Shown one piece after another: positions 1,429 to 36,711 of a stretch of DNA of 64,000 nt (within the stretch, counting starts at the first letter, position 1; every line of letters starts with the position of its first letter). This DNA is from Candidatus Collierbacteria bacterium (GTDB taxonomy: Bacteria; Patescibacteriota; Microgenomatia; UBA1400; JACPES01). The stretch spans positions 3,098-67,097 of the forward strand of contig JACRNH010000026.1 in the NCBI GenBank assembly GCA_016219325.1, read 5' to 3'. The translations under genes and the position numbers were made by a program. The notes below the pieces were generated by a model. It made no database searches and had not been told where the DNA came from. It saw only the letters and a program-made list of their open reading frames with translations.

Positions 1429-2495
1429 AACTCTTTTATTTTATCCTTAAATTCCTGTTTAAACATTTTATTAGGAAATCTTTCGCCACAAAGATTGTCG
1501 GGCAAAGCATGTTGAATAAATTTATTTATTGCTTCAACTAGCGAACCAACAGTTTGCCTGTCAAACAAAACTCCTGTTTTACCGTCTTTAATCATTTCGG
1601 CCGCGCCACTGTTTCGATAACTAATGACCGACGTACCACAACTTAAGGCCTCTACTGCCGTCAGTCCAAAGTCTTCCTCTTGAGGCATTATAACTGCTCT
1701 GGCATTCCGATAGTACTCAATTAGTTCCCGATCTGTCAAATATCCTGTGAATTTAATCGTCGATCCGGATAATTTTTTTAACTTTTTTTCTTCCGATCCG
1801 GTTCCTATCACGACCAAGGGTAATTTCAACTTATTGCAGGCCTTAATTGCCAAATCAATGTGCTTGTACGGCACCAATCTGGAAATAACCAGAAAATATT
1901 CTTTATCTGCTAAGGCCCGGCCTTGCCTTGCAAGGCCGGGCCTTTTTATGCCCAAAGACAACATCGGACGAAAAACTTCTGCCTCACGCCGATAAAACTT
2001 TAAACATCGTTTTCTTACAAGTTCGCTAATTGCCAAAATATAATCCGGCCTTTGGGCGGCTATATAATCCCAAATCCGCAATTTAGTCTGAACAATCCGC
2101 GCCGGCGGCCTGAATAATTTTGGAACTTCCCTCAAATAATCATTCGCATGACTCCATAAATATCTGGTCGGGGTTAGCAAATAACAAATATGCAATTGTC
2201 TCGGACTTGTAATTATTCCTTTAGCTGCTTCTGAAGTAATCGAAATAATTACGTCAAACTCTGAAAAATCAAACGACTCAAAGGCCAAAGGCATCAACCA
2301 GCCGAAAGATTCATGGTTGGTTTTCGCCCCCGGAATATTTTGCAGCCAAGAAGTTCTGATGTCCCAACTCTTAGCCCACGACGCTCCCTCCGGATCATAA
2401 ACACTGGTAAATACCGGCGCTTCCGGCCAAATTTCTTTGAGCGCCGTCAGCACCCTCTCCGCCCCGCCAAATTTATTTATTCTGTCGTACACCAA
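1392..2495 (-). CDS. GT4 family glycosyltransferase; carries one in-frame P1 palindrome
   Basis: N-terminal GGAERV motif, C-terminal EEDFGLTAVEALSCGTSVI (GT-B EX7E region). TTG start per ORF track. Confidence 0.7.
   Translation of the reverse strand: MVYDRINKFGGAERVLTALKEIWPEAPVFTSVYDPEGASWAKSWDIRTSWLQNIPGAKTNHESFGWLMPLAFESFDFSEFDVIISITSEAAKGIITSPRQLHICYLLTPTRYLWSHANDYLREVPKLFRPPARIVQTKLRIWDYIAAQRPDYILAISELVRKRCLKFYRREAEVFRPMLSLGIKRPGLARQGRALADKEYFLVISRLVPYKHIDLAIKACNKLKLPLVVIGTGSEEKKLKKLSGSTIKFTGYLTDRELIEYYRNARAVIMPQEEDFGLTAVEALSCGTSVISYRNSGAAEMIKDGKTGVLFDRQTVGSLVEAINKFIQHALPDNLCGERFPNKMFKQEFKDKIKELWIKHQTNIYSR
1911..1943. repeat. P1 palindrome AAGGCCCGGCCTTGC-CTT-GCAAGGCCGGGCCTT, in-frame in GT4 gene
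   Basis: Read directly; perfect 15-nt arms. Confidence 0.85.
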
Positions 2496-2506
2496 GGCGA
2501 TACGAA

Positions 2507-2534
2507 TGGTTAATGGTTAATGGTTAATGGTTAA
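2507..2534. repeat. Heptanucleotide tandem repeat (TGGTTAA)4 followed by degenerate TCA-rich repeats, intergenic, immediately upstream of GT4 gene 1392..2495 start
   Basis: Read directly. Confidence 0.8.
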
Positions 2535-2554
2535 TGATCATCGATCACCAATCA

Positions 2555-3655
2555 CTAATCATTAATTACCTTGTTATAAATTTTAAGCGTCTCTTCAGCG
2601 CACCTCTTCCAACCGAACATCTTCGCTCTTTGTTGACCAAGTTCTATCATTTTTTTTCTATATCCCTGATTATCCCTGATCTCCCCGATTTTCTCTATCA
2701 GCTCCGTCTCGTTTTTCGGATCAAAATACAATACGGCATTCCCATAAACCTCCGGCAAAGACCCAGCATTTGAACTGACTACAGGACATCCTGCCGCCAT
2801 AGCCTCCAAACCAGGCAACCCAAATCCTTCCGATTTTGACGGAAACACAAAGGCCAAAGCATTTCTGTAAAGCGCCGCCAATTCATTATCCGGAACAAAT
2901 CCGGCCAAAACAATCATATCTTTTAATCCCCTGTTTTCCACTTCTTTTCTAAACTTTTCCCAAAAAACATTTCGCGCGCATGCGACAACAAATTTAATTT
3001 CCGGGAATCGCGGCAAGATATCCAAAATAATATTTACATTTTTATGCGGATAAAGAGAACCTGTGTAAATTATATATGGCGAATCAACAAAGGCCCGGCC
3101 TTGCTGTGGCAAGGCCGGGCCTTTAAATACTTCCGATACCCCCTCATAAATCACGTTAATCTTCCCCTCCGCTTCCGGAAATCGCTCAACGATTTTCTTT
3201 TTCACCCAGTTAGACGGCACGATTATGGCTCTTGACTTTAAAACCGCGTGCCTTAAGACTAACCGGTAAAACAGATATTTCAGCCAATAAATCCAAACCG
3301 GCAAAGTAGTCGCAGTCGGCCCGACCTGCTCATGCCATAGAAGGTCATGAATAGTCACAACGAACGGTTTATTGTAAAAAAGAGGAACGTTGAAATGGGG
3401 AAAATGAACCAGATCTGGTTTTTCTAGGCGCAATATTCCGGGCATTTGAATTTGTTCTGCCAAAGTGTAATGTTTTATTTTAGGATTAATTGTGTTAACT
3501 TTGAGTTTTGAGTTTTGAGATTTGAGTTCGATATGTCGAGTTAGCATCTCGACATATCGTCCGATTCCGGCGTGTTCCAGCCCCGACAGCCTGGCATCAA
3601 TCACAATCTTTTTCATATCGCCTTTCTGATTTCCACTCCCAGTTTTACCAGCCAA
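2555..3655 (-). CDS. GT4 family glycosyltransferase; carries a P1 palindrome, a heptamer tract and a 12-bp-stem hairpin in-frame
   Basis: MKKIVIDARLSG...GIGRY N-terminus, EGFGLPGLEAMAAGCPVVSSNAGSLPEV C-terminus. Probable true start at MKKIV (~3616), overlapping the stop of the upstream GT2. Confidence 0.7.
   Translation of the reverse strand: MAGKTGSGNQKGDMKKIVIDARLSGLEHAGIGRYVEMLTRHIELKSQNSKLKVNTINPKIKHYTLAEQIQMPGILRLEKPDLVHFPHFNVPLFYNKPFVVTIHDLLWHEQVGPTATTLPVWIYWLKYLFYRLVLRHAVLKSRAIIVPSNWVKKKIVERFPEAEGKINVIYEGVSEVFKGPALPQQGRAFVDSPYIIYTGSLYPHKNVNIILDILPRFPEIKFVVACARNVFWEKFRKEVENRGLKDMIVLAGFVPDNELAALYRNALAFVFPSKSEGFGLPGLEAMAAGCPVVSSNAGSLPEVYGNAVLYFDPKNETELIEKIGEIRDNQGYRKKMIELGQQRAKMFGWKRCAEETLKIYNKVIND
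3089..3124. repeat. P1 palindrome AAAGGCCCGGCCTTGC-TGTG-GCAAGGCCGGGCCTTT, in-frame in GT4 gene
   Basis: Read directly. Confidence 0.85.
3501..3528. repeat. Heptanucleotide tandem repeat (TTGAGTT)4 in-frame near N-terminus of GT4 gene, followed by hairpin 3529-3559
   Basis: Read directly. Confidence 0.8.
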
Positions 3656-4509
3656 TTCAAAATCAACGGATATCTGCCAAAATAATGTTTCTTATAAAAT
3701 TGCCACATTGAATCCATAAACAATTTTTGGGTCTGTCTTCTCAAATCACCATCTCTACTCTGCTCCCGCCCGGATTGCTTTTTTAAATGCAAAGTTTTTA
3801 CTCCGGGATAAAAAAATATTTTAAATCCGGCTTCTTTTATCCTCAAACACCAATCAATATCTTCTCCGTACATAAAAAATCTCTCGTCCAGCAGACCTAT
3901 CTGATTAATGACTTCTGCGGGGACCATCATGAAAGCCGCGGAAATGCAATCGACCTCATGGGGAACTTTAAGGTTTTTCCAACCCTGATGATACCCTCCG
4001 AACAACCGGGTTTTGGGAAATAACTTTTCTAATCCCAGAAAATAACTCAAGGCATTCCAGGGCGTGGGAAATCCCCGGTGTGAAGCCGGATCGATCTTTC
4101 CATCCGAAGTTTGCAATAAACAGGTCGCCGCCCCGATAGATCGATCGTTCTCCATTACTTTCAAAACAGTTATCAAGACATCCGGCTCTACCAAAGTATC
4201 GGAATTCAGCAATAGGACATATCCTCCCTTTGCTTTTCGGATACCAACGTTATTACCCGCTGAGAATCCGAGATTTTTTTTATTCCTGATCAATTTAACC
4301 TCCGGGAATTCTTTCCTGACCATTTCCGCCGAACCGTCAGAAGAATTATTATCCACCACTATGACTTCCATATCCCTGCCTTCAAAACCGTTTGACTCCA
4401 AAACCGCGGATAAACATGTTTTAAGAAGTCCGGAAGTGTTGTAGTTTAAAATGATAACCGATAATTTAATTTTCATGTATCCGCCCCAATTTTTGATATA
4501 CCACGTCAA
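3613..4509 (-). CDS. GT2 family glycosyltransferase (WbbL/rhamnosyltransferase-like)
   Basis: LSVIILNYNTSGLLKTCL...VVDNNSSDGS...GFSAGNN motifs. Confidence 0.7.
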   Translation of the reverse strand: MTWYIKNWGGYMKIKLSVIILNYNTSGLLKTCLSAVLESNGFEGRDMEVIVVDNNSSDGSAEMVRKEFPEVKLIRNKKNLGFSAGNNVGIRKAKGGYVLLLNSDTLVEPDVLITVLKVMENDRSIGAATCLLQTSDGKIDPASHRGFPTPWNALSYFLGLEKLFPKTRLFGGYHQGWKNLKVPHEVDCISAAFMMVPAEVINQIGLLDERFFMYGEDIDWCLRIKEAGFKIFFYPGVKTLHLKKQSGREQSRDGDLRRQTQKLFMDSMWQFYKKHYFGRYPLILNWLVKLGVEIRKAI

Positions 4510-5665
4510 GGTCAGTAGAAATCTTTTCCCAATTAAAATTATTATCTACTAATCGCTTGCCGTTAATAGCCAGTTTTCTGGCTAATGCCGAATTATTCAA
4601 CAATTCAACCGTTGCCTGAACCAATTCTTCTTTTGAATCCCGGATTAAAGCGTTGACGCCATCTTTTGCCTTAATACCTTCAATTCCCAATGAAGTTGAG
4701 ACTACCGGCAATCCCGCCGCCATAGCTTCCAAAATCTTATATCTGGTTCCCCTGCCATTCCTGATAGGAGCCAACATGACATGGGCGCTTCCCAACGCTT
4801 CCCTGATATCGCCCACCTCTCCGATTACCTTAACCCCGGGAATCCTGTTGAGCTTCATGATCGCATCTGTCGCGTCCCGGCCGACTATTTTCAATTCGGC
4901 ATCGGGAATCTGAAGGTGAATATCCGGCCAAATTTCGTAGGCTATGTATTTGGCCGCATCCACATTTGGCAGCCATTTGTAGTTTCCCACAAACAAGACG
5001 GTCGGGGTTTTTGGCCTTTTTACCGGAGTATCTTTGAAATATTCTACGTCGATTCCGTTAGCAACAGTACTGACTTGCGCTTGCGGAACCATTCTTTTTA
5101 TCCAGTCCCTGTCTTCGGCAGACATCGTTACCAGATGATCTGCTTTTCTCCAAAATAATTTCTCCCAGAATTTAAGTTTAATCACATCTATATATAACAT
5201 CGGCCGTAAAAATGGCATCGCTGTCTGCTCTGTATAGGTTTGATAGCCCAAATACTCTATAGTTTGTTCCACTAAAAGCGTCGGGATTTCCGTCGCCGGA
5301 ATATTAGGCATGACATAAAAAGTTTCAGCGTGAATAATGTCATATTTCTCCTGATTCAATTCCTGCCTTAAAGCGTCCTTAGCTGCCTTGGATAGATAAA
5401 TACACACCAAAAAGGGATACGCCGTCAGTCCAGCCAACAATATATTCCTGATAGCCCACGGACTTTGCGTCCGCTTGAACAACATAATCTTACGGCAATA
5501 CGGCTTGAGTTTTCCGATATATTTTCTTTCATCGTCATCACGGATAAAAGAAAACAGAGAAATCTCATGTTTGTGGGCTAAATTTTTCAGCAAATTATAC
5601 GTCCGGATCTGCCCGCCGGAGTTCAACGGCCAAGGCAAATATGGAGTAAGCATCAAAATTCTCAT
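4466..5665 (-). CDS. GT4 family glycosyltransferase
   Basis: MRILMLTPYLPWPLNSGGQIR N-terminus; TRYKILEAMAAGLPVVSTSLGIEG C-terminus. Confidence 0.7.
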   Translation of the reverse strand: MRILMLTPYLPWPLNSGGQIRTYNLLKNLAHKHEISLFSFIRDDDERKYIGKLKPYCRKIMLFKRTQSPWAIRNILLAGLTAYPFLVCIYLSKAAKDALRQELNQEKYDIIHAETFYVMPNIPATEIPTLLVEQTIEYLGYQTYTEQTAMPFLRPMLYIDVIKLKFWEKLFWRKADHLVTMSAEDRDWIKRMVPQAQVSTVANGIDVEYFKDTPVKRPKTPTVLFVGNYKWLPNVDAAKYIAYEIWPDIHLQIPDAELKIVGRDATDAIMKLNRIPGVKVIGEVGDIREALGSAHVMLAPIRNGRGTRYKILEAMAAGLPVVSTSLGIEGIKAKDGVNALIRDSKEELVQATVELLNNSALARKLAINGKRLVDNNFNWEKISTDLDVVYQKLGRIHEN

Positions 5666-7137
5666 TTGCAGGCTTTGAGGTCAATAATCACATACTTATC
5701 TGTTTTTAATAAAGATTGACACTTATCCATTAATCCATTGGTTTCTTCGTCAAAATTAACCGAAATGTAATGAGTCGCCCCTTTGCTTATTTTGTCGTCT
5801 ATAGCTCCTCCCAGCGGCCAACCCAAACGATTGACCTGGAATAAAAATGCGGTATCCCCGCCATAAGGAGCGACAATTCTGGCATCCGCCGGCAGAATTT
5901 TATCCGCGGCCAATCCGGCTTCTATAATTTCCGGATGATTAATATTAAAATAATCTCTTATTTGAAACCAGCTAAACCCCAACATAAATACCGTTCCAAT
6001 CGCTAAAAAACCATAACTGGCTGATTTTGAAAAATATTCTTTTGGAATTGAAATCAAAAAATACATTCCTTTGGCCACAAAAACTGCCACTACAGGAGCC
6101 AATATCGATTGATAATAATCATGCCTGATATTGCCCGTAGCGATAATTATTAAATATGCCAAAGATCCAAAGCCCCACCAATCAAAAAACCAACCCTCTT
6201 TCTTAGAATGTTTGACTATCCAGCCTAAACCAAATAGAAACAAACCCCAATATCCTAAAATCAATCTTCCCAATCTATCCATAAACAACCATCTAAACCA
6301 AGCCGGCCTAAACCTAATCCCGTCTCCGTTAAATAACCAAGCGGAAGCCGGAATTCCTTCTGGAAATTGCTGAATCCAAAGCCTCCATAAAATAAACGGC
6401 AAAAAAGTTATTATCGCTGCCGTAAACAACCACCACCATTTCCTAAGATTAAATTGAAATTTGACAATTGACAGATAAAATAATGCCGGACCATAAATAA
6501 AAAGCCACACCGGCTTGAGCAAAACCGCCCCGATTGAAGCAGTCACTCCCACAAACCACATCAACAATCTGCCTTCAAAGATAAACCCGATCATTCCCCA
6601 ACTAGCAAGCAGTGAAAAGAACATTAATTTGGGTTCCGGCAAAACTGTCCGCGAATAATAAATATTGAAAGGTAAAAATGTCAGAACTGCCGCGGCCAAA
6701 ATCGCCGTTTGCCGTCCGTTAAACTTGTTGACTATCAAATATAAAAGCCAGATTGAACCCAATGAAAAAATGATTGAGGTCAATCTTTCAATTTTTACTA
6801 AACCTTCCAACCCACCTACTGCGTTTAACCCTCCCAACGATTGGATTATCGCAGCAACTAACCCGTTTATAAACGGTAATTCAACCATTCGCCACCCGAA
6901 AGGATTATCTTTTCCTGATGGGATAGAAGACAAATCCATATATTTCGGATGCAACAGATCTATTCCGTTTTTAACAAATTCCCTAGTCACCCCAGCTGTA
7001 TCCACTTGCCTCCACGAATGCCAATCTGCTAAAGGAAAATCAATCCGGTAAAGCCTGACAACAAATCCCAAAAGTATTATTGCTGACAATAATAAATAGT
7101 ATTTAATCTTTTTTCCCATATGCCAGAGACGCTCCAA
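5662..7137 (-). CDS. GT-C fold membrane glycosyltransferase (ArnT/PMT GT39/GT83-like)
   Basis: Polytopic membrane protein with DWHSWRQ / DE-containing first periplasmic loop typical of ArnT/PMT_2 family. Confidence 0.55.
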   Translation of the reverse strand: MERLWHMGKKIKYYLLLSAIILLGFVVRLYRIDFPLADWHSWRQVDTAGVTREFVKNGIDLLHPKYMDLSSIPSGKDNPFGWRMVELPFINGLVAAIIQSLGGLNAVGGLEGLVKIERLTSIIFSLGSIWLLYLIVNKFNGRQTAILAAAVLTFLPFNIYYSRTVLPEPKLMFFSLLASWGMIGFIFEGRLLMWFVGVTASIGAVLLKPVWLFIYGPALFYLSIVKFQFNLRKWWWLFTAAIITFLPFILWRLWIQQFPEGIPASAWLFNGDGIRFRPAWFRWLFMDRLGRLILGYWGLFLFGLGWIVKHSKKEGWFFDWWGFGSLAYLIIIATGNIRHDYYQSILAPVVAVFVAKGMYFLISIPKEYFSKSASYGFLAIGTVFMLGFSWFQIRDYFNINHPEIIEAGLAADKILPADARIVAPYGGDTAFLFQVNRLGWPLGGAIDDKISKGATHYISVNFDEETNGLMDKCQSLLKTDKYVIIDLKACK

Positions 7138-8713
7138 CTAACCCCCAAAACGCCAGCGCAACTTTACTGGCTTCAAATACATCAATGTAAAAAGCATTAA
7201 CCAGCAATCCTAAAATTCCGGCTATAACCGCGGCCAATGCGCCTTTGCCATCATAGAAATCTCTGTCTTTCAGGCTTTTCCATAATAAATATCCGGCATA
7301 AATAATTAACCCATAAAACGCAAGAAATCCCAATAGACCAGTCTCCCCCAACGCCCTAAGGTAATCGTTATCTGTTGATTCCGCTTCGGTAAAATCAGTC
7401 AGCTGAACTTTCAGCAAAGTTGAATACCCAGACCCCAACAACGGATTTTTCTTAAATCCGGCAATCGCTCTTGGCCAAAGAGCATCCAACCTGATCGCCG
7501 ACGACAATCCGTAAGTTAAAGCCGCGTCTGAATAAATTCTGGGTTTGGAAATTATCCTGACTACTCCGTTGGCGTCAGTTGAAGTAGATAGATCGGGAAC
7601 TTCATTGTAAACATCAGACGGAACCGAAGATTCCGTGGTCCCGTTTTCCCCCGTTCCGGATTGAAACCCTCCGCCTTCTGATCTAACCAATGTCGGCGGA
7701 ACATCGGTTTTATCAGCCACAAGCGCTAACTGATCGGTTAAATTAACATATCTTTGCGGGGTTTTCTGGTCCAGATGAAAAATATTGTTGGAGATATAGC
7801 CGTTAATCTTGGATAAATTAATTATTTGAGAAAATCTACCTGACAGGTCTCCGAATACCAAAAAGGTTACTGTCCCGAAAACCGTCATTATCAAAACCTT
7901 GGACAAGGTTTTTTTCCATCCCAGCGCATAGATATAAAAACAAAAAAGAGGAATTATACTTCCAACCAAAGCTAAATATGAAGTCCTGGAGGCGGTTAAA
8001 ATTAATAATGTATAGCCTAAAATAAACGAAGTCCAGCCCGATACTTTTCCCAACAACGATTTACTATAAAAAACCGCCCCCATTGTCAATGGCAATACCA
8101 ATACTAAGAATGCCGCCAAATCGTAATGGCCGGCGAAAGTGGAAGGGACTCTGGCATGCTCCGTCAAAACCAATCTCCAGCCCTTAGCGAATTCACGATT
8201 CATTGTTGAATAAACCGGCCATTGGGCGTACTTTTGGCCAAATCCGTAAACTGCCGCGGCTAAAACGACTAGCGCTAATACTTGAATTAAATTTTTAAAG
8301 TGACTCTTATTTTTAAATCCGTCATAGAACAAAAACAGCGGGAAAAAGTATTCGATTCTTCTGACCCAATGCAAGCCCCATTTCATAATATGAATGGTTT
8401 CCATCGGAATAGTTTTAACGATAAAAATCGCAGCCAAACCTGAAGCTGCCCCGATTGCCAGATATGCCGCCACTAGCCAAAATAAGGGGTTCTTAAACGG
8501 TTTTACTTTTCCTAAGATCCAAAGTACAAGGTAAATCAGGGCAAAGGCCAGGATAAAAAAGTCTTCCAGTCTGACTCTAACTATATATCCCGGTAAAATG
8601 TCAAATAAGGGAATCTTTGGGTAAAGCGGAATAAATATCGATAAAAATACCGCCAGCCAGAATAGCCAGGGCCGATTTAAAGGCTTCGAAATAATTTCTT
8701 TTATACTCGCCAT
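7103..8713 (-). CDS. O-antigen ligase/polymerase-like (Wzy_C domain) membrane protein with C-terminal extension
   Basis: Polytopic; TASRTSYLALVG resembles the conserved SRxxxLA of the Wzy_C/WaaL domain; long low-complexity periplasmic segment. The 5' end overlaps the next gene, so the true start is probably internal. Confidence 0.4.
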   Translation of the reverse strand: MASIKEIISKPLNRPWLFWLAVFLSIFIPLYPKIPLFDILPGYIVRVRLEDFFILAFALIYLVLWILGKVKPFKNPLFWLVAAYLAIGAASGLAAIFIVKTIPMETIHIMKWGLHWVRRIEYFFPLFLFYDGFKNKSHFKNLIQVLALVVLAAAVYGFGQKYAQWPVYSTMNREFAKGWRLVLTEHARVPSTFAGHYDLAAFLVLVLPLTMGAVFYSKSLLGKVSGWTSFILGYTLLILTASRTSYLALVGSIIPLFCFYIYALGWKKTLSKVLIMTVFGTVTFLVFGDLSGRFSQIINLSKINGYISNNIFHLDQKTPQRYVNLTDQLALVADKTDVPPTLVRSEGGGFQSGTGENGTTESSVPSDVYNEVPDLSTSTDANGVVRIISKPRIYSDAALTYGLSSAIRLDALWPRAIAGFKKNPLLGSGYSTLLKVQLTDFTEAESTDNDYLRALGETGLLGFLAFYGLIIYAGYLLWKSLKDRDFYDGKGALAAVIAGILGLLVNAFYIDVFEASKVALAFWGLVGASLAYGKKD

Positions 8714-9578
8714 TGCCTTTCAGTATACCAAATATCAACCACCGCGAGATCATTCCCAGTCCCAAAATAGCCTTAAGCAGAGGCATCTCCCAGCTTGGTT
8801 TATGAATTTTAAAAATGTGTTTTAATCCGTTAATCTCGCCCTGAATCCATTTTCCGCCTCCGGCTTTCCCCAAATGAACAATTGACGCCTTTGGGTTTAA
8901 CATTATATCCCAGCCCAATTTCCCGGCTCTCAAACACAATTCCACATCTTCTCCATACATAAATAGAGATTCATCAAAACCGTTTAACTTTTTCCACAGA
9001 ACATTTGAGACCCACATCGCCGTTCCGGCTACCCAGCCGGTTTTTTGCGGTCCACCGGAAAAAAAAGATTTCCGGCGCAATTGATAAGAAGGTAGAAATT
9101 GGCTAAAGACCGGTAAATCATCTAAGAACAGCGCCCAAAATGCCACCGTTGACAATTTTGGCAAATAACCACCTTGTTGTTGTATTGTTCCATCAGGATT
9201 AAGCAAATTACAACTGACAATCCCTACTTCTGGGTTATCTGATAAAAAGTTTTTCATTTCTTTAAAAGTCCCGGGGGTAACTTCCGTATCTGAATTTAAA
9301 AATAATAACCATTTGCCTGCGGCTTTCTTAGCGGCCAAATTATTTCCTTTAGCGAAGCCTAGATTAGTTTGGCTGTATAAATTCTGAATTCTGAATTCTG
9401 AATTCTGAATTCTGAAATGCTTTAGCATTTCAGCGCTCCCGTCCGTACTGGCGTTATCCAATACAATGATTTCGGCATTCAAAGAAGAGTTTTTCAAATC
9501 CTTGACAGCCGAACGTAAACAAGCCAACGTCAAGTCTTTAGTATTGTAAGAAAGGATAATAACGGATATATCTATCAT
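8601..9578 (-). CDS. GT2 family glycosyltransferase; contains in-frame (GAATTCA)5 tract
   Basis: ISVIILSYNTKDLTLACL...IVLDNASTDGS...GFAKGNN. Confidence 0.7.
   Translation of the reverse strand: MIDISVIILSYNTKDLTLACLRSAVKDLKNSSLNAEIIVLDNASTDGSAEMLKHFRIQNSEFRIQNLYSQTNLGFAKGNNLAAKKAAGKWLLFLNSDTEVTPGTFKEMKNFLSDNPEVGIVSCNLLNPDGTIQQQGGYLPKLSTVAFWALFLDDLPVFSQFLPSYQLRRKSFFSGGPQKTGWVAGTAMWVSNVLWKKLNGFDESLFMYGEDVELCLRAGKLGWDIMLNPKASIVHLGKAGGGKWIQGEINGLKHIFKIHKPSWEMPLLKAILGLGMISRWLIFGILKGNGEYKRNYFEAFKSALAILAGGIFIDIYSALPKDSLI
9380..9414. repeat. Heptanucleotide tandem repeat (AATTCTG)5 = (GAATTCA)n on gene sense strand, in-frame in GT2 gene (EFRIQNSEFRIQN)
   Basis: Read directly. Confidence 0.85.
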
Positions 9579-10202: not shown

Positions 10203-11332
10203 TCAGGCTTCACCTGAAAATAATTTAAATAGTTTTATCATCTGGTTAGCCGCAATGTCCCAGCTAAATCGAACTGCTTTTATCATACCTTTTTTAATCA
10301 TACTTTGCCTTTGAATTTTATTCATAGACAAGACCTTCTCAATTTTTTGAGCCATATCTTTTATATTTATTGGATCAAACAAAATCCCGGCGTCACCCAC
10401 TACTTCAGGCATACTGGTAGTATTACTTGCCACAACCAAAGTTCCGACACTCATTGCTTCAACCGCCGGAATCCCAAACCCTTCATATAAACTTGGTAAA
10501 ACCAAAGCCTCCGCTCCGGCGTAAAGATCCGGCATATCTTCTTCCGGGACGTAACCCAGATATTTCACTTGTGAAGTTTGCGAAACTTCACCATTCAACA
10601 AAGGTTTCGCAAACTTCTCGTCAGCAAACTGCCGCCACGTTTTCCCCGCAATCATAAGACGGACATCCGGAAATCTATTTTTCACCTTTTCAAATGCTTT
10701 AATCAACCGTGGTAAATTCTTTTTCGGCTGCAGCGTCCCAACAAATAATAAATATTTTCCCGAAGTTCCTTCTTCCTTCTTCCTTCCTCCTTCTTCCTTA
10801 AATGCTTCGGAAACTCCCGGATATACTACTGTTATTTTCTCCGCCGGATAACCATACTCTTTCATTATTTCTCTCTTATTAAACTCGCTAATTGTGATAA
10901 CATGGTCCGCGCTTCTCACCGATTCTCTAGTCCAATTTACAAGCTGCCACAGCACAGCTGGTTTAAACGCTTCCGGGTATTTTAAAAACGATAAATCCAT
11001 GACGCAAACAACCCGCGGAACCGGAGACCATTTGGGAGCGTAATGTGACAGGGATAAAAACACATCCGGACGGGGCTTATGAAAATATAAATCCAGAGGC
11101 AATCTCCATCTAGTCCACAATCTCCCCGGCCCAATTACCCGATACTTCCAATACTCCGTCTCCTCCGGCAAATCAGCAACCGGTGGTCGCGACAAATAAA
11201 TCTGAAATTTTATTTCTTCCTTCTGCCCTATTCCTTTTTCCTTTTTCCTTTTGAACTGCTTTAGCAGTTCGAAGGCCCATACATTTACTCCTACCCTCTG
11301 TTTAATATTGGCTTCGTTTCCGTCAATTCCGA

Positions 11333-11339: not shown

Positions 11340-12436
<1,097 letters not shown>

Positions 12437-17118: not shown

Positions 17119-19905
17119 TTATAAATTAAAATAGTGATCCTTATATTCTGCCAAATCAGCGGTATTTAGATACAACCTAAAATCCTGTTCCCGATCTATC
17201 AACTTTAATTTATCATCTTTCGGTTCATAAGGCGAAATTATGAATTTTGTAGCAGTTTGAGCCAACAGTTCAGCGCTTGGTTGTGGTTGCTGATTGAAAA
17301 CCGAATATGGAGGCAAAATCGGAAAATAATCTTTTTCCGTAAATCCTCCGGCTTTTTGTAAATAATTAACGAATCTCGTCAATTGAATCGGATTATTCCC
17401 GCCTAAAAGCGCAATCCCCATTTTTTGGGCTGTCAACCTATCCAAACAGCCTATCGCGCAATAAACCCGTGTCAAAGATCCTACCGACGCCATGGTTTGA
17501 TAAAACCTAAACGGAATATCATCTTTAATTGCTTGCCTGCGGGAAAAAATTCCACGGTCGAAATATGCGAATTCCAACAATATGGCAATCACTATTGCTC
17601 CGGCTAATAATTTAGATTTTTTTGTCAACCGACTGATTATTTGGGGAACAAATATCGCCATAGCTAATGACATGAAAATCCACGGCCTGGTAGTAATCCG
17701 CAACAGGGAAAATCCGGGGAGCAATTTAATCAAAAAATAAAACGGGGTTTTGATATTAAAGGCGACCAATGGAATAAGCCCCAACCAGACAATCCAAAAT
17801 AAGGCCCGGCCTTGCCTTAGCAAGGCCGGGCCTTTAAATACCAAATATATAACAACCAGTAAAACCGGTGTCAACCCTAAATACAAAATCTCTTCATTTT
17901 GCAATAAAGGATGGCTTCCGGCCAACGGGAAAAATAAGCTTTTAAATATTTTCATCCAACTCCAAAAAGGTAATGGCGCTTCCTGCAAATTCGCCCTGAC
18001 GGTTTGATTCCCGAATAATGCCAAAGGCAGCCAGCGGGGAATGGTTAAAATGAGTGCGGCAATCAACGTCTTAAGCATTTTAAGGCCTGGCCTTGCTGCT
18101 GTAGCAAGGCCAGGCCTTTTAAAAATAATCAAATAATATATAACTACGAACAGAATTGAATAGTACCCAATATTCAAATTATTGATAATAATCGCCGCCA
18201 ATGAAATTGCCGTCCAACCAAACCTTTTATTTTTTAATGCCCAATATAAAAACGGCAGCCAACTGGCGGCAATAACTAAACTCCAGTTCCCTTCTTCAAT
18301 ATGACTTATTATTTTCGGCGACAACACAAACATTCCCATCCCTAATAACACCAATCTCCACGATACTCCTGATTCATTCAATATTTTTTTAACTCCCCAG
18401 CCGGCTAATACCAAATGGCCAATCAGTAAAATCAAAAATCCCAATTCCAACGGCAGAAGCAATAGAATGTAATTTGGGGGATACCATAAAAAGTTTTGCG
18501 GATCTAAAAAGTATGGCATTCCGGCCATAATCCAAGGATTCCACACCGGAAATTTTCCGGCCAGCAAACTATTTTTGAAGAATAACGCGTCGGGCAAAAA
18601 CTGGGTGGTTAAATCGTTTCCGCGATAAAACAGCCGGTTAAAAATTCCCCGGCTAAAACCTTTGTCTAAAACCTCAAATTGCTTCCCACTCATTGACGAA
18701 AAATAAATTTCCGGATTATCTTTATAATTCTTTACCCGACTCAAAATCCTCTTCTGGCTCTCTGAATCAGAACCTAAATATTCTTCTGTCAATTTTTGAG
18801 AGATAATCCCTCTGGTGGTGCTCCAATGGTTTGAGTAATTAAAATTTACAAACAGAAATGACAACGACAACACGATTACTGACGCTATAACCATCGTCAT
18901 TCCGGGCCCTTCGGTCCTGAGACTTTCAGGATCTAAGGGCTTGACCCGGAATCTATTCAAGTAGATTCCAGCTTGCGCTGGGATGACACTGTTTTTTCCT
19001 AATTCAATCATCATCAAGGCAATTCCGAAAATCGCGTATGCCGCCAATAAGTGATTCTCAAATCCCGATACCGGTAAAATCCCTAAAAAATAAAACACCA
19101 TTCCTTTAATTAATTTCTGACGGAATATCAAAATTAAAAAGACAGCCGGAATTAAACTGCCAACCGTTAACCAAAACGGAAAATTTCTGATTCCTTCGGG
19201 GATAAATAACGCTCTCAATCCGTACCATTTCAGCGAAGAAATAATTCCCAATAAGTTCGTTGAAATCGTGTAATCGGCATTTGGAGAAAACGGGTTAGCT
19301 AGAAACTTGGCTCCGATCAAGAATAGACCGGCGACCAATCCGAGAACGGCCATTCTTTTCTGCTTAAACCAAATCCACCAAACAATCGGCAAAAAAACTA
19401 CAACTTCATGCGACAAAATTCCGAATAAATATAAAATGAGCCCACAAGTTTGTGCTAAAAAGGCTTGGCCTTGCTTCGCAAGGCCAAGCCTTAATAAATA
19501 AGTCGACGTCAACCCAAAACTCACCGCGATCTCTATATCAACTTGAGTCAGCCAATTTAAAACCACAAAATGAGCCGGATTCACCGCGTAAAAAAGCATT
19601 AAGTAAAAACTCTTATTTTTCAATAATTTCCACAACAAAACAATATTTATAAGATGGATAGAAAGTCCAAGCAAATGAAATCCACCGGCATCCAAACCGG
19701 ACAGTCCGCTCCCTATCCAAAAGAATAATTGTTGGCCAACTGGCCGATAAAACGCTTCTGAATGATGATCAAATATTTTTGCGAAAGGTTGTTTATAAAC
19801 ATGAGACAAAAATACCCAATCGTCTTGAGAAAAATAAGTTCCGAGCGTCGGAGCAAACACAACCGCCGCCGCAATCAAAATAATTCCCAACTGCCAAAAT
19901 TTCAT
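17119..19905 (-). CDS. Large polytopic membrane protein, YfhO-family-like (928 aa), putative polymer glycosyltransferase; three in-frame P1 palindromes
   Basis: Many TM segments; GKFPVWNPWIMAGMPYFLDPQNFLWYPPNY resembles the YfhO FPLWNP...G.P motif; N-terminal FSQDDW region. Confidence 0.45.
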   Translation of the reverse strand: MKFWQLGIILIAAAVVFAPTLGTYFSQDDWVFLSHVYKQPFAKIFDHHSEAFYRPVGQQLFFWIGSGLSGLDAGGFHLLGLSIHLINIVLLWKLLKNKSFYLMLFYAVNPAHFVVLNWLTQVDIEIAVSFGLTSTYLLRLGLAKQGQAFLAQTCGLILYLFGILSHEVVVFLPIVWWIWFKQKRMAVLGLVAGLFLIGAKFLANPFSPNADYTISTNLLGIISSLKWYGLRALFIPEGIRNFPFWLTVGSLIPAVFLILIFRQKLIKGMVFYFLGILPVSGFENHLLAAYAIFGIALMMIELGKNSVIPAQAGIYLNRFRVKPLDPESLRTEGPGMTMVIASVIVLSLSFLFVNFNYSNHWSTTRGIISQKLTEEYLGSDSESQKRILSRVKNYKDNPEIYFSSMSGKQFEVLDKGFSRGIFNRLFYRGNDLTTQFLPDALFFKNSLLAGKFPVWNPWIMAGMPYFLDPQNFLWYPPNYILLLLPLELGFLILLIGHLVLAGWGVKKILNESGVSWRLVLLGMGMFVLSPKIISHIEEGNWSLVIAASWLPFLYWALKNKRFGWTAISLAAIIINNLNIGYYSILFVVIYYLIIFKRPGLATAARPGLKMLKTLIAALILTIPRWLPLALFGNQTVRANLQEAPLPFWSWMKIFKSLFFPLAGSHPLLQNEEILYLGLTPVLLVVIYLVFKGPALLRQGRALFWIVWLGLIPLVAFNIKTPFYFLIKLLPGFSLLRITTRPWIFMSLAMAIFVPQIISRLTKKSKLLAGAIVIAILLEFAYFDRGIFSRRQAIKDDIPFRFYQTMASVGSLTRVYCAIGCLDRLTAQKMGIALLGGNNPIQLTRFVNYLQKAGGFTEKDYFPILPPYSVFNQQPQPSAELLAQTATKFIISPYEPKDDKLKLIDREQDFRLYLNTADLAEYKDHYFNL
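17800..17835. repeat. P1 palindrome (spacer CTTA), in-frame in YfhO-like gene
   Basis: Read directly. Confidence 0.85.
18081..18119. repeat. P1 variant AAGGCCTGGCCTTGC-TGCTGTA-GCAAGGCCAGGCCTT, in-frame in YfhO-like gene
   Basis: Read directly; compensatory C/T-G/A change keeps palindrome. Confidence 0.8.
19459..19493. repeat. P1 variant AAGGCTTGGCCTTGC-TTC-GCAAGGCCAAGCCTT, in-frame in YfhO-like gene
   Basis: Read directly; compensatory changes keep palindrome. Confidence 0.8.
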
Positions 19906-19963
19906 ATTTTTGATACTTCAATTATTTTCCTGCAGAGCAGGATCAGTCTTTGCCTGAAAATAA

Positions 19964-21256: not shown

Positions 21257-21849
21257 TTAAACATTTTCTTTTCCTCGACTTTTAGGCCGGCTTTTTTGAA
21301 TAACCCTTCCAAAAGTTCGACATTAAAAAATGTCAAGTGAGCTCTATTCCAAACTCTTCCTTTTCCAAATTTTTTCCAAAAAAACCAAATAACTTGAAAT
21401 AGCCAACTCCCGCTATCGATTTCTACAATTATCGATCCGCTTCCTTTAAGAATTCTTTTTAATTCTATTAATGTCCCAAATGGATCAATTACGTGTTCCA
21501 AAGTTTCCAGAATTGTAATTAAGTCCACAGACGAATTTCTCAGAGGCAGTCTATGGGCGTCTGCCTGAATAAAAACGATATTCCGGTGTATTTTCTTTCC
21601 GAAAGCCAGGGGCGGCAAATATGGGTCTATGGCGATTATTTTATTTAATTTAATTCTCTTAGACAATGAATTAACAAAACTTCCGTCAGCCGAACCGACT
21701 TCAACTAAAACATCAGCTTTCTTTCCGCCGACGGATTCCGCTACCGCTTTTAATTTCCCGCCATGCCAAATTCTCTGCAGGAAATTTGTTTTTACCCCGG
21801 ACGAAAAATAATCGGCCGGTACTTGCGACCAAATTTTAGGTAAATCCAT
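21220..21849 (-). CDS. Class I SAM-dependent methyltransferase
   Basis: LVEVGSADGSF motif I, DLITILETLEHV. Confidence 0.6.
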   Translation of the reverse strand: MDLPKIWSQVPADYFSSGVKTNFLQRIWHGGKLKAVAESVGGKKADVLVEVGSADGSFVNSLSKRIKLNKIIAIDPYLPPLAFGKKIHRNIVFIQADAHRLPLRNSSVDLITILETLEHVIDPFGTLIELKRILKGSGSIIVEIDSGSWLFQVIWFFWKKFGKGRVWNRAHLTFFNVELLEGLFKKAGLKVEEKKMFNWGMGVCYRLRF

Positions 21850-21875
21850 ATTTTGAGAATTGTATACTAAATTAT

Positions 21876-23792
21876 ATGTTGGTTACACCTGATTACGGTT
21901 TATCCGATATCTGGAATTTCAATTATCCGCTGAAAAATTTATTAAGTGAATCCTTAAAAACTGGAAAGTTTCCCCTTTGGACAGATATGATTGGAAACGG
22001 TTTCCCGATCGGGGCCGAGGGGCAAATCGGAGCCTTCAGCCCATTAAATTGGCTCATCTTTGGATTGCTGCCAATGCCGCAGGCGTTTACGGCGGCCCTT
22101 CTTTTAACATTCGTCATAACGTTTACCGGATCATATTTACTGATGAGGAAAATTGGATTGTCGAAAATCTTGAGCGCCATATCAGCGTTATTTGCCTCAT
22201 CCAATGGATATTTTATAGTCCAAATGACGCACCTTAATTTACTGCAATCTTTTTCTTTTATTCCTTGGGCCCTATTATTTACTGAAAAATTAATTTTCGA
22301 GAAAAATCTCCGGCCGGTACTGTGGCTGGGAGTCGTGCTGGCACAAATGGTTTTAGCCGGTTACCCGCAAACATTCATTAATACTTTGCTTATTTTAACT
22401 ATGTATTTAACTATCAGAAATTGGAATAAAAAAATATCTAATTTTACTAAGATAGCAGTCGCGGCTACCGTCGCAATTTTGCTGTCGGCGGTTCAAATTA
22501 TCCCTTTGCTTGAATTGGTAAAACAATCCGACAGCCTGTCTGCCGCAACCGGGCAAAGGTATATTCACCCTTTGCCGATAAAAAATCTATTGTCAATATT
22601 TTATCCTTTTATATTCGGAAATCCCTCTCGGGGAACATTTTCATATTATGGAAAGGGCTGGCCGATCTTCTGGGAAAATCTATTATACGTTGGGATTATC
22701 CCTTTCTTAGCGCTGATAGTCGGCGTAATTAAAAAAAGAATTTCCGGAACGCCAAAATATCTTGGACCTAAGAAAGCGATTGTAACCGTTTTTTTAATCA
22801 GCCTAATTCTATCCTTGGGAAAAAATACTCCGGCCGGATTGTTATTTAAACTTCCGCCGTTATCTTTTACCAGAATTGAATCCCGATTTCTGGCTTTCTC
22901 TAATATTTCACTGGGATTATTAGCCGGACTATTTTTATTAAAAATACTTTTCGGATTTTCTAAAAATTCACGGATAAAAGTTGTAATTGTAATCGCCTGT
23001 TTGCATATTTTCCAAATGGCATGGACTTTCCGCGATTATCATCTGTGGGGAAAAGATGAACAGTGGTTGAAAAAACCGGAAATAGCAGAAAAATTAAACC
23101 CTAATTCCAGAATAGTCACCATAAATCAGGAAGACTTATGGAAAAAGGCCGACTCTTATCAGGGATGGGAAGGAAAAGAAAATATGGTTCGCTACGCCGG
23201 AAAAACATTGGGGCCAAATTCAAACATGATTTTCAATATTAAACAGCTTGGCGCTTACGCTCAACAATATCCCAGACGTTTCGATATATTCAGACATTTT
23301 ATTTACGGAAACGAAACTCTGGGGAAAAATATCCGCGGCGTTTTCGGGGTAACCCATATTATCGACGCTTCATCCGGAAAAATTGAAATCGCGGAAAACC
23401 CATCGGCCATGCCGAATATTTGGACCTCAAGTCGGATTTATAAAGTAAAAGATATTGGAGAAGCGCTGGGAAGAATGTCGCAGCCGGACTTTACCTTAGG
23501 CGAAATTCTTTGGGAAAGTGAAACAGTCCCCGGCGCAAATGAAAAGATTGTGGTTTTCAACCGGAGCTGGTACCCGGGCTGGAAGGCTTACGCCAACGGG
23601 CAACAGATTAAAATTTATCCTGCCAATATCAACCAACAGGCAGTTATTGTGCCGTTTTCAATACCGCCATCTGAAATAACTTTACGGTATGACCCAATAT
23701 CATACAAAATCGGTTTCGCGATAACCTTTGCCACAATCATTGGATGGATTGTTTTATTTTTAAAGTCCACACCAAGGTCATATTATGTTTAA
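21876..23792 (+). CDS. YfhO-family-like polytopic membrane protein (638 aa)
   Basis: TGKFPLWTDMIGNGFPIGAEGQIGAFSPLNWL resembles YfhO N-terminal motif; many TM helices. Confidence 0.45.
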   Translation: MLVTPDYGLSDIWNFNYPLKNLLSESLKTGKFPLWTDMIGNGFPIGAEGQIGAFSPLNWLIFGLLPMPQAFTAALLLTFVITFTGSYLLMRKIGLSKILSAISALFASSNGYFIVQMTHLNLLQSFSFIPWALLFTEKLIFEKNLRPVLWLGVVLAQMVLAGYPQTFINTLLILTMYLTIRNWNKKISNFTKIAVAATVAILLSAVQIIPLLELVKQSDSLSAATGQRYIHPLPIKNLLSIFYPFIFGNPSRGTFSYYGKGWPIFWENLLYVGIIPFLALIVGVIKKRISGTPKYLGPKKAIVTVFLISLILSLGKNTPAGLLFKLPPLSFTRIESRFLAFSNISLGLLAGLFLLKILFGFSKNSRIKVVIVIACLHIFQMAWTFRDYHLWGKDEQWLKKPEIAEKLNPNSRIVTINQEDLWKKADSYQGWEGKENMVRYAGKTLGPNSNMIFNIKQLGAYAQQYPRRFDIFRHFIYGNETLGKNIRGVFGVTHIIDASSGKIEIAENPSAMPNIWTSSRIYKVKDIGEALGRMSQPDFTLGEILWESETVPGANEKIVVFNRSWYPGWKAYANGQQIKIYPANINQQAVIVPFSIPPSEITLRYDPISYKIGFAITFATIIGWIVLFLKSTPRSYYV

Positions 23793-25275
23793 ACATTTTT
23801 GGTCAAAAGTTATATTGACAATTATTTTTTCCCTGCTGGTTTTTCCAAATCTTGGAATCAGAACTTTATGGCAAGACGAGGCGGAAACCGCCTTAGTTGC
23901 CAGACAAATGGTCAAATCAAATAATTGGCTGCCATACGCTTATGACGACCAGGGACCGATCAATCAGGATTGGAATTATCAATTTTCAGTTAGCAAATTA
24001 TGGCGCTGGCATCCGTGGCTCCAATTTTATGTTACCATTCTGTCGTTTAAATTCTTCGGTGTTTCCGCCTTGACCGCCAGATTGCCTTTTACCTTAATCG
24101 GAATTTTATTTTTTTGGTATTGGTTGGGATTTATCGAAAAACACGGCCCGAAAAATAAACTATTCTATTTTCTGGCGGTTAGTTTAGTTTTAACTTCTGT
24201 CCCGCTTTTATTGCATATCAGGCAAGCCAGATATTATTCATTGGCATTGTTGTTTACCTTGATGGCGGTGGATGGATATTTGCTTAATCTGAAAAGGACG
24301 GTCCTCTCCAAAAGAGGGCCGTCCTTTAAATATATTCTCGGCAGCATTTTACTTTTTCACAGTTTCCTTCCCGGAGCGCTGGCTTTACAAATTTCTTTCT
24401 GGATTCATCAAATTTATCGTTTGATAAGACCCGGCCTTGCGATGCAGCAAGGCCGGGCTTTTATTCGGTTCGCCGCCACTTTCTCAACAACTCTAATCTT
24501 TACTCTCCCATGGGCCTGGTGGCTCAAAATCGGGGGCCAAAATCTAAACTTTAATTTAGAAATTATTAAACAAAATCTACACTGGCATTATGTTTACATC
24601 CATAAATTTATTTTTCCGGTTTTTCTTTTAATCCCGTTTTTATTTTCCGGAATTAGATCAAAAATTTTAAAAAACAATAATGGCTTACTATTTTTATTAA
24701 TAATCATTACCACCCTCGGGCTTTATACCATCAACCATCCATATTTTTTCCGCTATTTGGTGCCGTTAGTCCCGTTTTTCACTTACCTCGCCGCCCGGAT
24801 TATTGTTTCACTTCCTAAAAAATTGGCTATCGCTGCCACATTTATCGCCTTTTTCCCGGGTCTTAGACTTCTTCCTGACTATTTATTTGAAATTGCTCAT
24901 CCGTATATTGGAACTAATGAGCAGATAATAGCAATGCTTAATTCCGAAAAATTTTCTGGGACTAAAAGCCTGGCCGTAAATTACGACGACTTTACTTTCC
25001 GGTTTCATACTAATTTAATTGTTCATGGAGCCCAAGAATTGACAAAATTAAATACCTGCCCCGACTCTGTGATTATTTTTCCGGAGTGGGGAAATGAAGA
25101 CTTACTGGAGAATATTGCCAACGGTTGCCACTTAGAAAATTATCCGTCTGAAATTAGTTATGCAAAGCTGGCCGATGACCCAAGTCCGGTCAACCACCGT
25201 TTTACGCCTCCTCAAACCGGTTCAATTAAGATTTTTGTAAAACCTCCGGAATCTCTTGTTTATCCATCTGAATAG
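23785..25275 (+). CDS. GT-C fold membrane glycosyltransferase (ArnT/PMT-like); two in-frame palindromes
   Basis: LWQDEAETALVARQM first-loop motif; polytopic. Confidence 0.55.
   Translation: MFKHFWSKVILTIIFSLLVFPNLGIRTLWQDEAETALVARQMVKSNNWLPYAYDDQGPINQDWNYQFSVSKLWRWHPWLQFYVTILSFKFFGVSALTARLPFTLIGILFFWYWLGFIEKHGPKNKLFYFLAVSLVLTSVPLLLHIRQARYYSLALLFTLMAVDGYLLNLKRTVLSKRGPSFKYILGSILLFHSFLPGALALQISFWIHQIYRLIRPGLAMQQGRAFIRFAATFSTTLIFTLPWAWWLKIGGQNLNFNLEIIKQNLHWHYVYIHKFIFPVFLLIPFLFSGIRSKILKNNNGLLFLLIIITTLGLYTINHPYFFRYLVPLVPFFTYLAARIIVSLPKKLAIAATFIAFFPGLRLLPDYLFEIAHPYIGTNEQIIAMLNSEKFSGTKSLAVNYDDFTFRFHTNLIVHGAQELTKLNTCPDSVIIFPEWGNEDLLENIANGCHLENYPSEISYAKLADDPSPVNHRFTPPQTGSIKIFVKPPESLVYPSE
24293..24327. 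repeat. P1-related palindrome AAAGGACGGTCCTCT-CCAAA-AGAGGGCCGTCCTTT in GT-C gene
   Basis: Read directly; one mismatch between arms. Confidence 0.6.
24426..24460. repeat. P1 degenerate copy AAGACCCGGCCTTGC-GATGCA-GCAAGGCCGGGCTTT in GT-C gene
   Basis: Read directly. Confidence 0.7.
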
Positions 25276-36707: not shown

Positions 36708-36711
36708 AAGC

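Follow-up and report, generated by a model that had tools for sequence, protein, structure and literature searches.

Short, perfectly paired palindromes read through inside genes of candidate phyla radiation bacteria

Why does a bacterium of the candidate phyla radiation (CPR) carry the same GC-rich hairpin inside the reading frames of different proteins, and what keeps the two arms of each hairpin matched? The question is raised by a 64-kb stretch of a Candidatus Collierbacteria contig (JACRNH010000026.1; ~40% G+C), hereafter the window, in which a palindrome family that we call P1 recurs in glycosyltransferase and membrane-protein genes. Within a superfamily of very short GC-rich perfect palindromes, whose core measures 31 to 37 nt, P1 is the most common subtype. 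We lean, with some reserve, towards the view that this superfamily is non-autonomous palindromic DNA that is tolerated in permissive loops, keeps its arms complementary at the DNA level, and has spread by a trans-acting or recombinational route.

The window holds seven near-perfect GC-rich palindromes with stems of 15 to 17 bp, spacers of 3 to 6 nt, and arms of 60% to 73% G+C. All seven lie within 1 nt of the positions given in a first-pass annotation made from the sequence letters. The genes that carry them are as follows:

1392-2495, minus strand: GT4#1, a family 4 glycosyltransferase (GT4) of 367 aa (Pfam Glycos_transf_1, 8.9e-33).
2555-3655, minus strand: GT4#2, a glycosyltransferase of 366 aa (Pfam Glycos_transf_1, 7.8e-33, plus Glyco_transf_4).
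17119-19905, minus strand: a multi-pass membrane protein of 928 aa with three copies; no Pfam family.
23785-25275, plus strand: a multi-pass membrane protein of 496 aa with two copies; no Pfam family.

The copies themselves, with scores in bits from a covariance model described below, are:

1912-1944: P1 copy with core CCCGG/CCGGG, spacer CTT, and perfect 15-bp arms; encodes RPGLARQGRAL, aa 185-195 of GT4#1; RNA fold -32 kcal/mol, z -4.8; 51 bits.
3089-3124: P1 copy with core CCCGG, spacer TGTG, and perfect 16-bp arms; encodes KGPALPQQGRAF, aa 178-189 of GT4#2, where it occupies the interdomain linker just as the 1912 copy does in GT4#1, with the left arm read in a different frame; fold -36.6 kcal/mol; 52.6 bits.
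17801-17834: P1 copy (site 3) with core CCCGG, spacer CTTA, and 15-bp arms; encodes KGPALLRQGRAL, aa 691-702 of the 928-aa protein.
18082-18118: P1 copy (site 2) with core CCTGG/CCAGG, 16-bp arms, and sense-strand spacer ACAGC; encodes KRPGLATAARPGLK, aa 596-609 of the 928-aa protein.
19460-19492: P1 variant (site 1) with the doubly compensated core CTTGG/CCAAG, 15-bp arms, and a spacer of 3 nt; encodes LRLGLAKQGQAF, aa 138-149 of the 928-aa protein; TTTTT follows on the sense strand.
24293-24327: another subtype of the superfamily, with core ACGGT/GCCGT and 15-nt arms with one mismatch; encodes KRTVLSKRGPSF, aa 170-181 of the 496-aa protein; 37.6 bits.
24426-24461: P1 copy with 11 perfect pairs and a partly degraded outer stem (G·T, A·C); encodes IRPGLAMQQGRAF, aa 214-226 of the 496-aa protein; 35.7 bits.

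Six of the seven share the arm AAGGCC-N-GGCCTTGC, and the seventh, at 24293-24327, is a diverged relative. Half-sites number 24 in the window where 2.45 are expected, a count as high being reached in none of 100 shuffles, and AAGGN5CCTT occurs 10 times (1.5 expected), always within the palindromes. A covariance model trained on 51 family members and run over the 64 kb with filters off returned precisely the seven known copies and no eighth. As RNA, the hairpins fold on either strand at -26 to -37 kcal/mol (z -4.8 to -7.2). Nor did an assembler create the palindromes, because an independent Logan assembly matches window positions 1-9407 at 100% identity. The compensatory arm variants of the first-pass annotation are real (the T/A pair at 18082 and CTTGG/CCAAG at 19460), as is its statement that copies sit in frame in at least four genes: all seven lie in long open reading frames (ORFs) without loss of frame, in two GT4 and two membrane-protein genes, and encode peptides of 11 to 14 aa.

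The superfamily was revealed by relaxing only the 5-nt centre of each arm, which gives the frame A-AGG-N5-CCT-T(GC)-spacer-(GC)A-AGG-N5'-CCT-T. Family counts refer to the matches listed and the ~930 kb of groundwater CPR contig DNA fetched around them; L-numbers (L096 and so on) denote fetched contig loci, and P-numbers (P0127 and so on) protein homologues. The motif had been expected to be enriched beyond the window, and in these CPR contigs it is, with ~180 distinct copies, 148 of the matches being strict P1. An exact-pattern scan of the representative genomes of 185,579 species found nine places, including Collierbacteria and Daviesbacteria, and the same scan of JGI metagenome contigs at least 120 stretches. 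Viral contigs gave zero matches to the exact pattern, and a phage origin was rejected on that ground. Spread across phyla was also considered, since the element is present in metagenome-assembled genomes (MAGs) labelled Gammaproteobacteria, Saganbacteria, Jorgensenbacteria, and Saccharibacteria; of the contigs concerned, three are short (3-7 kb) and two longer (18-25 kb), and the doubtful labels were not relied on.

Among the 5-nt cores, CCTGG (70), CCCGG (61), CCAGG (34), and TTACA (9) are the most frequent, followed by TCCGA/TCGGA (5), TCTCA/TGAGA (4), AGTCT/AGACT (4), ACGGT/ACCGT (3), and many singletons. The same cores recur at unrelated loci; the ACGGT subtype, to which the relative at 24293 belongs, is found again at unrelated sites in L132 and L138. 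The AAGG and CCTT boxes are invariant around this free, co-varying core. In 31 of the 32 frame occurrences with a core other than CCNGG the N5 cores are fully complementary, and the core is therefore free to vary while its pairing is kept. We use this frame count because a covariation count on our alignment A3 is circular for the N5 columns, whose rows were picked for complementarity. At the centre of the 5' arm pyrimidines greatly outnumber purines (C 50 vs G 1, T 55 vs A 23), an asymmetry intrinsic to the family, since the property is identical on both strands of a palindrome.

Of 182 distinct copies, 165 (91%) lie within an ORF of at least 100 aa, as do 91.9% of random 34-nt windows of the same DNA, so that the elements are neither excluded from genes nor drawn to them; those that are inside genes leave the frame intact. 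They are read in three frames (87, 72, and 23 copies), whose products are RPGLA..QG(R/Q)AL, KG(P/L/Q)AL..QG.AL, and KARPC..ARPGL, and the arms are free of stop codons in all frames. Because of this three-frame use the peptide is not one motif, and the single (K/R)xPGLAxxQGRA(F/L) segment first described for the family does not hold; the accompanying proposal that nucleic acid rather than peptide is what is kept is borne out by the use of three frames across ~180 copies. Those copies in short ORFs or intergenic DNA that were checked do not lie in rRNA or other RNA genes, and some are near tRNAs.

Host proteins are diverse. The 101 non-redundant host ORFs match 117 Pfam families, of which GT4 is the largest group (17), and include class I aminoacyl-tRNA synthetases, PheT, pseudouridine synthases, deaminases, FemAB, methyltransferases, and a UDP-GlcNAc epimerase. 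The glycan-island context emphasized at first is therefore incidental, since unrelated genes such as those for LeuRS, PheT, and pseudouridine synthases carry the superfamily. Within the proteins, the positions are those of loops. In LeuRS, alignment to solved structures places the element in a short loop. In an AlphaFold model of GT4#1 built on 60 homologues (mean pLDDT 88.9), only aa 183-196 score under 50; this stretch corresponds to the palindrome peptide and separates the two Rossmann domains, and the element recurs at the equivalent of this interdomain linker in many GT4 paralogues. The hairpin peptides of the 928-aa and 496-aa membrane proteins fall between hydrophobic stretches. Judged from the model, the palindrome appears to be read through as a flexible surface loop or linker, a passenger peptide, which agrees with the tolerated in-frame loop segment that had been predicted.

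Of 214 GC-rich hairpins, 166 have a perfect stem. This perfection does not come from youth, because in 35 orthologous pairs, whose flanks are 79% and whose arms are 87.5% identical, each of the 57 differences between arms has a matching change in the other arm. Were an mRNA hairpin under selection, G·U mismatches ought to outnumber A·C ones on the sense strand. The imperfect copies have 25 A·C and 22 G·T, and selection at the mRNA level was rejected for want of a G·U bias. Further, the spacer is exactly inverted between unchanged flanks in L033 and L040 (98% identical) and in L043 and L027 (91%), and the spacer at 24426 is closer to that of L082 when inverted than when direct. Arm homogenization together with spacer inversion is the signature of template switching between the arms of inverted repeats (PMC8604942), a process that makes and maintains perfect hairpins with apparent one-step compensatory changes (PMC8794818). 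From the mirrored arm differences, the lack of wobble bias, and the inverted spacers, we infer that the stems are probably maintained by a strand-symmetric process at the DNA level rather than by selection on peptide or mRNA. The first-pass annotation had attributed the stems to selection for structure; perfect stems are indeed kept, but the mismatch counts and inverted spacers fit DNA-level arm homogenization at least as well, and the claim of selection can probably be replaced by such self-correction.

Comparison of orthologous sites shows both how old many of them are and how variable their content is. Many sites are common to homologues down to about 61% identity, and among non-identical orthologous comparisons the hairpin is in both relatives in 78 and not in both in 20. 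At the GT4#1 linker, five orthologues have five cores (CCCGG, CCTGG, TCCGA, TCTCA, and ACGGT), each with a perfectly matching partner arm, and orthologues alter the peptide (RSDL..GRTL, RSHL..GETL, RTVL..GPSL) while keeping the arms complementary; at the same linker, orthologues may have other N5 subtypes, heptamer arrays, or no element, and distant GT4 homologues have a short variable linker without it. In the 928-aa protein, the segment at site 1 (19460) is cleanly missing from homologues P0127, P0128, P0129, and P0131, and its orthologue in L096 has CCTGG/CCAGG. Site 2 (18082) retains a perfect hairpin of 15 to 16 bp in homologues down to 61% identity, with cores CCTGG, AGTAT, ACGGT, and TCTAA, and the hairpin has decayed in a homologue at 50% identity. 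Site 3 (17801) has an identical copy in L139, a spacer 3 nt longer in L096, and a (LGK/LGR)n repeat instead in other homologues. In the 496-aa protein, orthologues of the 24426 copy in L082, L124, and L022 have perfect stems with differing spacers, and at the 24293 site the hairpin has the core TCTGA in L022 and TTACA in L082 and L124. The segment had been predicted to be specific to a lineage, and the four homologues lacking site 1 and the distant GT4 proteins without it show that it is.

The sites are shared with other small repeats. The window has ~22 heptanucleotide tandem arrays of 3 to 5.6 copies, many inside ORFs, in which one unit more or less would put the sequence out of frame. Examples are:

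2505-2536, 9380-9416, 10766-10799, 11214-11252, 11736-11767, 13452-13481, 34694-34725, 35116-35145, and 37824-37855: heptamer tandem arrays.

A window carbamoyltransferase has (TTCAGAA)4 where L011 and L012 carry P1. At the hairpin site, L133 and the third GT4 gene of the window have (GAAGGAA)n, an array that occurs in the linkers of different GT4 genes. Other arrays where relatives have a hairpin are (CCCTCTT)4 in L110, (GATGATG)n in L031 and L074, and (CCTTCGT)4 in L103. In further cases a longer GTCAT...ATGAC palindromic element holds the site; at the GT4#2 linker occupied by the 3089-3124 copy, L133 and L135 have in place of P1 an 84-nt palindromic element, GTCATTGCGAG...CTCGCAATGAC, i.e., GTCATTGCGAGGAGC...GCTCGCAATGAC. 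Loop-coding positions such as these are hot-spots at which small repeats in general are found.

On a neighbour-joining tree of GT4#1 orthologues, built with the linker masked and possibly affected by recombination, linker types are patchy: TCCGA appears three times, TCTCA twice, an EEG heptamer array in four separate places, and an AACGTT-rich repeat three times, with sisters differing in type. Linker content thus turns over by replacement and not only by gradual change, and gradual evolution in place as the sole source of core variants is weakened by this patchiness and by the recurrence of cores at unrelated loci.

Scattered over genomes of CPR bacteria of the Collierbacteria type, the palindromes are DNA-level repeats without a gene of their own that persist inside genes as loop or linker passengers, and their arms have stayed complementary over long divergence, in the family as a whole and between orthologues. 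In the mechanism that we favour, intramolecular template switching, or conversion of one arm by the other at replication, would keep the arms complementary and would also flip the spacer, with no need for selection on the peptide or on an mRNA hairpin. A trans-acting or recombinational route would let the family spread and replace other small repeats at the same permissive sites. Several observations weigh against this account. There is no target-site duplication and no flanking direct repeat at any offset. Core lengths fall into classes modulo 3 of 69, 74, and 14, with no fixed element length; what arrives is not a unit of constant size, so the frame must have been kept by selection among the events. 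Close relatives offer one clean pair of a filled and an empty site, L031 and L020; the two are 30 nt apart in length, and AAGGTT is already present in the empty one. Several copies take the place of a loop of similar size instead of lengthening it. The flank consensus is symmetric: T is found at -7 in 72% and at -5 in 71%, A at -1 in 97%, and the 3' side shows the mirror image (A at +5 and +7). It could reflect a preferred target or belong to the element as its outermost part. A tblastn search of ~1 Mb of flanks for a REP-associated tyrosine transposase (RAYT), made with an approximate IS200 TnpA query, yielded no hit (best E 0.53), a negative of little weight. The patchy linker types on the GT4#1 tree also count here, and the persistence of a perfect hairpin at site 2 down to 61% protein identity fits a selected function as well. 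In-frame tolerance, as originally claimed, stands, and insertion is too simple a description, given the missing duplication, the variable length, the old sites, and the alternating fillers.

On either side, the non-random signal in the flanks has died out about 8 nt from the core. The flanks of individual copies show no complementarity beyond chance, and positions 2-4 on each side pair below expectation. Eighteen of 368 arms are unpaired, all of them centres of other short hairpins or arms with degraded partners, and none of the 18 bounds an insertion sequence (IS). An origin from abutted IS ends was rejected because no lone arm bounds an IS, and a miniature transposable element of the inverted-repeat kind (MITE), for whose repeats the arms might be taken, because there is no target-site duplication and the unpaired arms are not IS ends.

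Several other explanations were weighed. That the hairpins are functional nucleic-acid structures under selection (mRNA hairpins or DNA cruciforms at which transcription uncoupled from translation would pause or end, RNase processing sites, or sites for a dimeric AAGG-N5-CCTT-binding protein) is possible but doubtful. Perfect orthologous stems with mirrored changes across deep divergence, great hairpin stability, invariant boxes around a co-varying core within symmetric flanks, and recurrence at the interdomain linker of many GT4 paralogues would all follow from it, as would the T-run on the sense strand after 24% of copies, e.g., 19460. However, the sense strand lacks a wobble bias, the hosts are functionally unrelated, the coding fraction equals that of random windows, and relatives exchange the hairpin for heptamer arrays or other repeats, or lack it, with no visible effect on the ORF. 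AAGGN5CCTT occurs nowhere outside the elements, by which single protein-binding or restriction-like sites of that sequence are also dismissed; there is no Rfam match, and a terminator-like tail is a minority feature. An avoidance of T-runs on the sense strand was not used as evidence, because its asymmetry (37 against 87) is little more than the A-over-T bias that coding strands show in general. Rather unlikely, in our estimate, is an undescribed CPR system that recognizes structure and not sequence and that installs, exchanges, and maintains ultra-short hairpin cassettes, with heptamer arrays as the alternative, at fixed loop-coding hot-spots. If it were true, the elements would not be passive selfish repeats, and turnover in linkers and loops would be uncoupled from the gene around them, a new means of enzyme diversification or regulation, especially for the builders of the cell surface. 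A related and still less probable proposal is that hairpins and heptamer arrays are exchangeable linker cassettes that offer short homology for recombination or hypermutable switching and would, in the manner of contingency loci, shuffle or diversify the domains and loops of membrane proteins and surface-glycan enzymes. All seven window copies lie in the glycan-gene part (P ~0.001 if placed at random), the adjacent GT4 genes share the domain boundary with the right arm in the same frame, frame-shifting heptamer arrays occupy the same sites, and the GT4 tree is patchy (TCCGA three times, the EEG array four, AACGTT three). The tree is a quick neighbour-joining one that may itself be affected by recombination, many hosts are housekeeping proteins for which diversification makes no sense, and 31 to 37 bp is about as short as, or shorter than, the length that RecA-dependent exchange usually requires.

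Two further explanations seem very improbable. If (K/R)xPGLA..QGRA(F/L) were a conserved protein motif selected as a peptide, the KRPGL..GQAL-like peptides at the same position in GT4#1 orthologues of 58% to 78% identity would be expected, but the three frames give RPGLA..QGQAL, KGPAL..QGRAL, and KARPC..ARPGL, orthologues change the peptide and keep the arms complementary, the segment is predicted to be disordered, and distant homologues lack it; a conserved peptide motif was rejected on the frames and the changing peptides. It is just as hard to credit that the elements are ordinary intrinsic terminators or repetitive extragenic palindromes (REPs) between wrongly fused genes, or an assembly artefact. 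They are GC-rich hairpins with A/T-rich flanks, and 17801-17834 scored as terminator-like on the minus strand. Both halves of the GT4 proteins nevertheless match Pfam in one frame across the element, homologues align on either side, and AlphaFold is confident on both sides, so that misfused ORFs and terminators between them were rejected, domains and homologues being continuous. The GTAG and CGTC tags of REPs are found at 1 and 0 of 180 copies, dimers are rare, and the elements occur in assemblies from several studies and assemblers. Intrinsic terminators were further discounted because the elements are inside ORFs and only 37 of 157 have at least three T in the next 4 nt of the sense strand.

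Where, then, does this family stand among known repeats? In behaviour it is like the Rickettsia palindromic elements (RPEs), which are dispersed palindromes in unrelated genes read through as extra peptide (PMC10969869, PMC3733652): copies are dispersed in unrelated ORFs, in frame and compatible with the fold, and the element encodes no transposase. It is unlike them in size (a core of 31 to 37 nt against ~100-150 bp; PMC10969869), in being read in three frames where each RPE family has one conserved peptide, and in its perfect 15- to 17-bp stems with mirrored changes where RPE copies have diverged. The hosts also differ (CPR against Rickettsia), and the sequences are set apart by length and boxes, not by a consensus alignment. 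Of the early description as RPE-like, the resemblance in behaviour thus remains and family membership does not, on account of length and frame usage. REPs are likewise GC-rich palindromes of 20 to 40 bp in many copies, some of them inside genes as loops or linkers, and a non-autonomous mobile origin has been proposed for both; intragenic REPs include RPE-4 and RPE-6 of R. conorii and those of Opitutus terrae (PMC3733652), and REPs also form the doublets termed REPINs (PMC3116915). However, REP stems are 5 to 13 bp long and REPs are mainly extragenic and often dimers, whereas here 91% of copies are intragenic and single, with 1 of 78 neighbour distances below 100 nt. Of 180 copies, 1 has an unpaired GTAG no more than 8 nt from its core and none has CGTC (~7 expected by chance), and REP membership was rejected for the absence of these tags.

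Coding palindromes and GC-rich hairpin elements of organelles, in the mitochondria of Nematomorpha (PMC6649704) and in Volvox (PMC2670323), are also perfect inverted repeats translated within coding sequence that retain both a perfect stem and their coding role, but in Nematomorpha both arms encode conserved regions and the repeats reach 284 bp and are locus-specific, unlike the dispersed, disordered loops here. PARCELs (PMC2996958) share with P1 a palindromic coding repeat readable on either strand in small-genome microbes; they are longer tandem intragenic repeats that build repeat proteins, whereas P1 consists of single short hairpins in ordinary enzymes. Hairpins shaped by template switching (PMC8794818, PMC8604942) show the same arm homogenization, one-step compensatory changes, and spacer inversion. 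That process, however, is upkeep at a single locus, and leaves over the occurrence of the same 15-nt arm at ~180 unrelated loci.

A known RNA gene or motif was rejected because Rfam 15, at the gathering score, gave no covariance-model match in the window and only tRNAs in nine loci. Together with the absence of REP tags, this upholds the early view that the sequence family is a different one. Elhai et al., writing in 2008, reportedly described hairpin-forming, mobile, very small dispersed repeats (SDRs) of 21 to 27 nt alongside heptameric short tandemly repeated repetitive (STRR) arrays in filamentous cyanobacteria, both far below MITE size, a co-occurrence like that of hairpins and heptamer arrays here. 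Those elements differ from P1 in phylum and sequence and are mostly intergenic. We found no description of this palindrome family in CPR in the literature searched. The superfamily behaves like RPEs and REPs and is a member of neither family; notable features are the perfect, co-varying stem at old orthologous sites and a cassette-like turnover with heptamer arrays.

CPR genomes are tiny and tightly packed and their repeat content is almost unstudied, and here a repeat of ~33 bp lies nearly always inside genes, essential ones included. On the view of P1 as tolerated palindromic DNA, the notion of selfish DNA inside proteins, established in Rickettsia, would extend to a distant lineage at one quarter of the size. 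With its many orthologous sites, flipped spacers, and mirrored changes of the arms, the family offers a natural data set for separating selection on structure from self-correction of palindromes by template switching, and a turnover process is suggested by the way in which hairpins and heptamer arrays take turns at a given site. There is a warning in it for annotators and modellers: loops of 11 to 14 residues rich in K/R, P, and G in CPR proteins may be DNA passengers.

Identification of the host as a possible CPR bacterium was borne out by the 928-aa protein, which is 100% identical to HZB78_06005, a hypothetical protein of Candidatus Collierbacteria bacterium. GT4#1 shares 68% identity with a protein from a further Collierbacteria MAG and 75% with one from the "Patescibacteria group". 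The first labels given to the host genes were right for the two GT4 enzymes, as confirmed by Pfam; the designations YfhO-like (928 aa) and GT-C (496 aa) fell away, since Pfam assigns neither protein, and a weak YfhO match is found only in a half-length homologue. The 928-aa gene also contains a second kind of element:

18895-18990, minus strand: composite palindromic element of ~95 nt, GTCATCCCAGCG...CCCGGAATGAC, translated in frame as VIPAQAGIYLNRFRVKPLDPESLRTEGPGMT.

It is missing from four homologues, and two others have a different "...LGFARNDT" element. It represents a second, longer, more RPE-like family.

Intergenic DNA of the fetched contigs contains relatives of the arm, e.g., AAAAAGGCC-N-GGCCTTTTT and GCCACAAAAGGCC-N-GGCCTTTTGTGGC, that resemble bidirectional terminators, several of them beside tRNA genes (L105 3775-3804; L121 8434-8463 and 9205-9234; L063 1736); lone arms occur among them in L023, L034, L105, and L121. 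The P1 arm may have been derived from terminator-like intergenic hairpins of this kind.

Other inverted and tandem repeats of the window are:

10573-10617 and 3529-3559: perfect inverted repeats in GT4 genes, one with 14-nt arms and a 17-nt spacer, the other with a 12-bp stem and a 7-nt loop; relative L108 has a P1 copy at the place matching 10573-10617.
29828-29866 with 29900-29931, 33222-33299, 36709-36783, and 47370-47404: octamer tandem arrays in intergenic gaps.

In one case an octamer array, (TTGTTATC)x4.4, faces its own reverse complement, (GATAACAA)x4. The intergenic octamer arrays may be arrays of regulatory sites.

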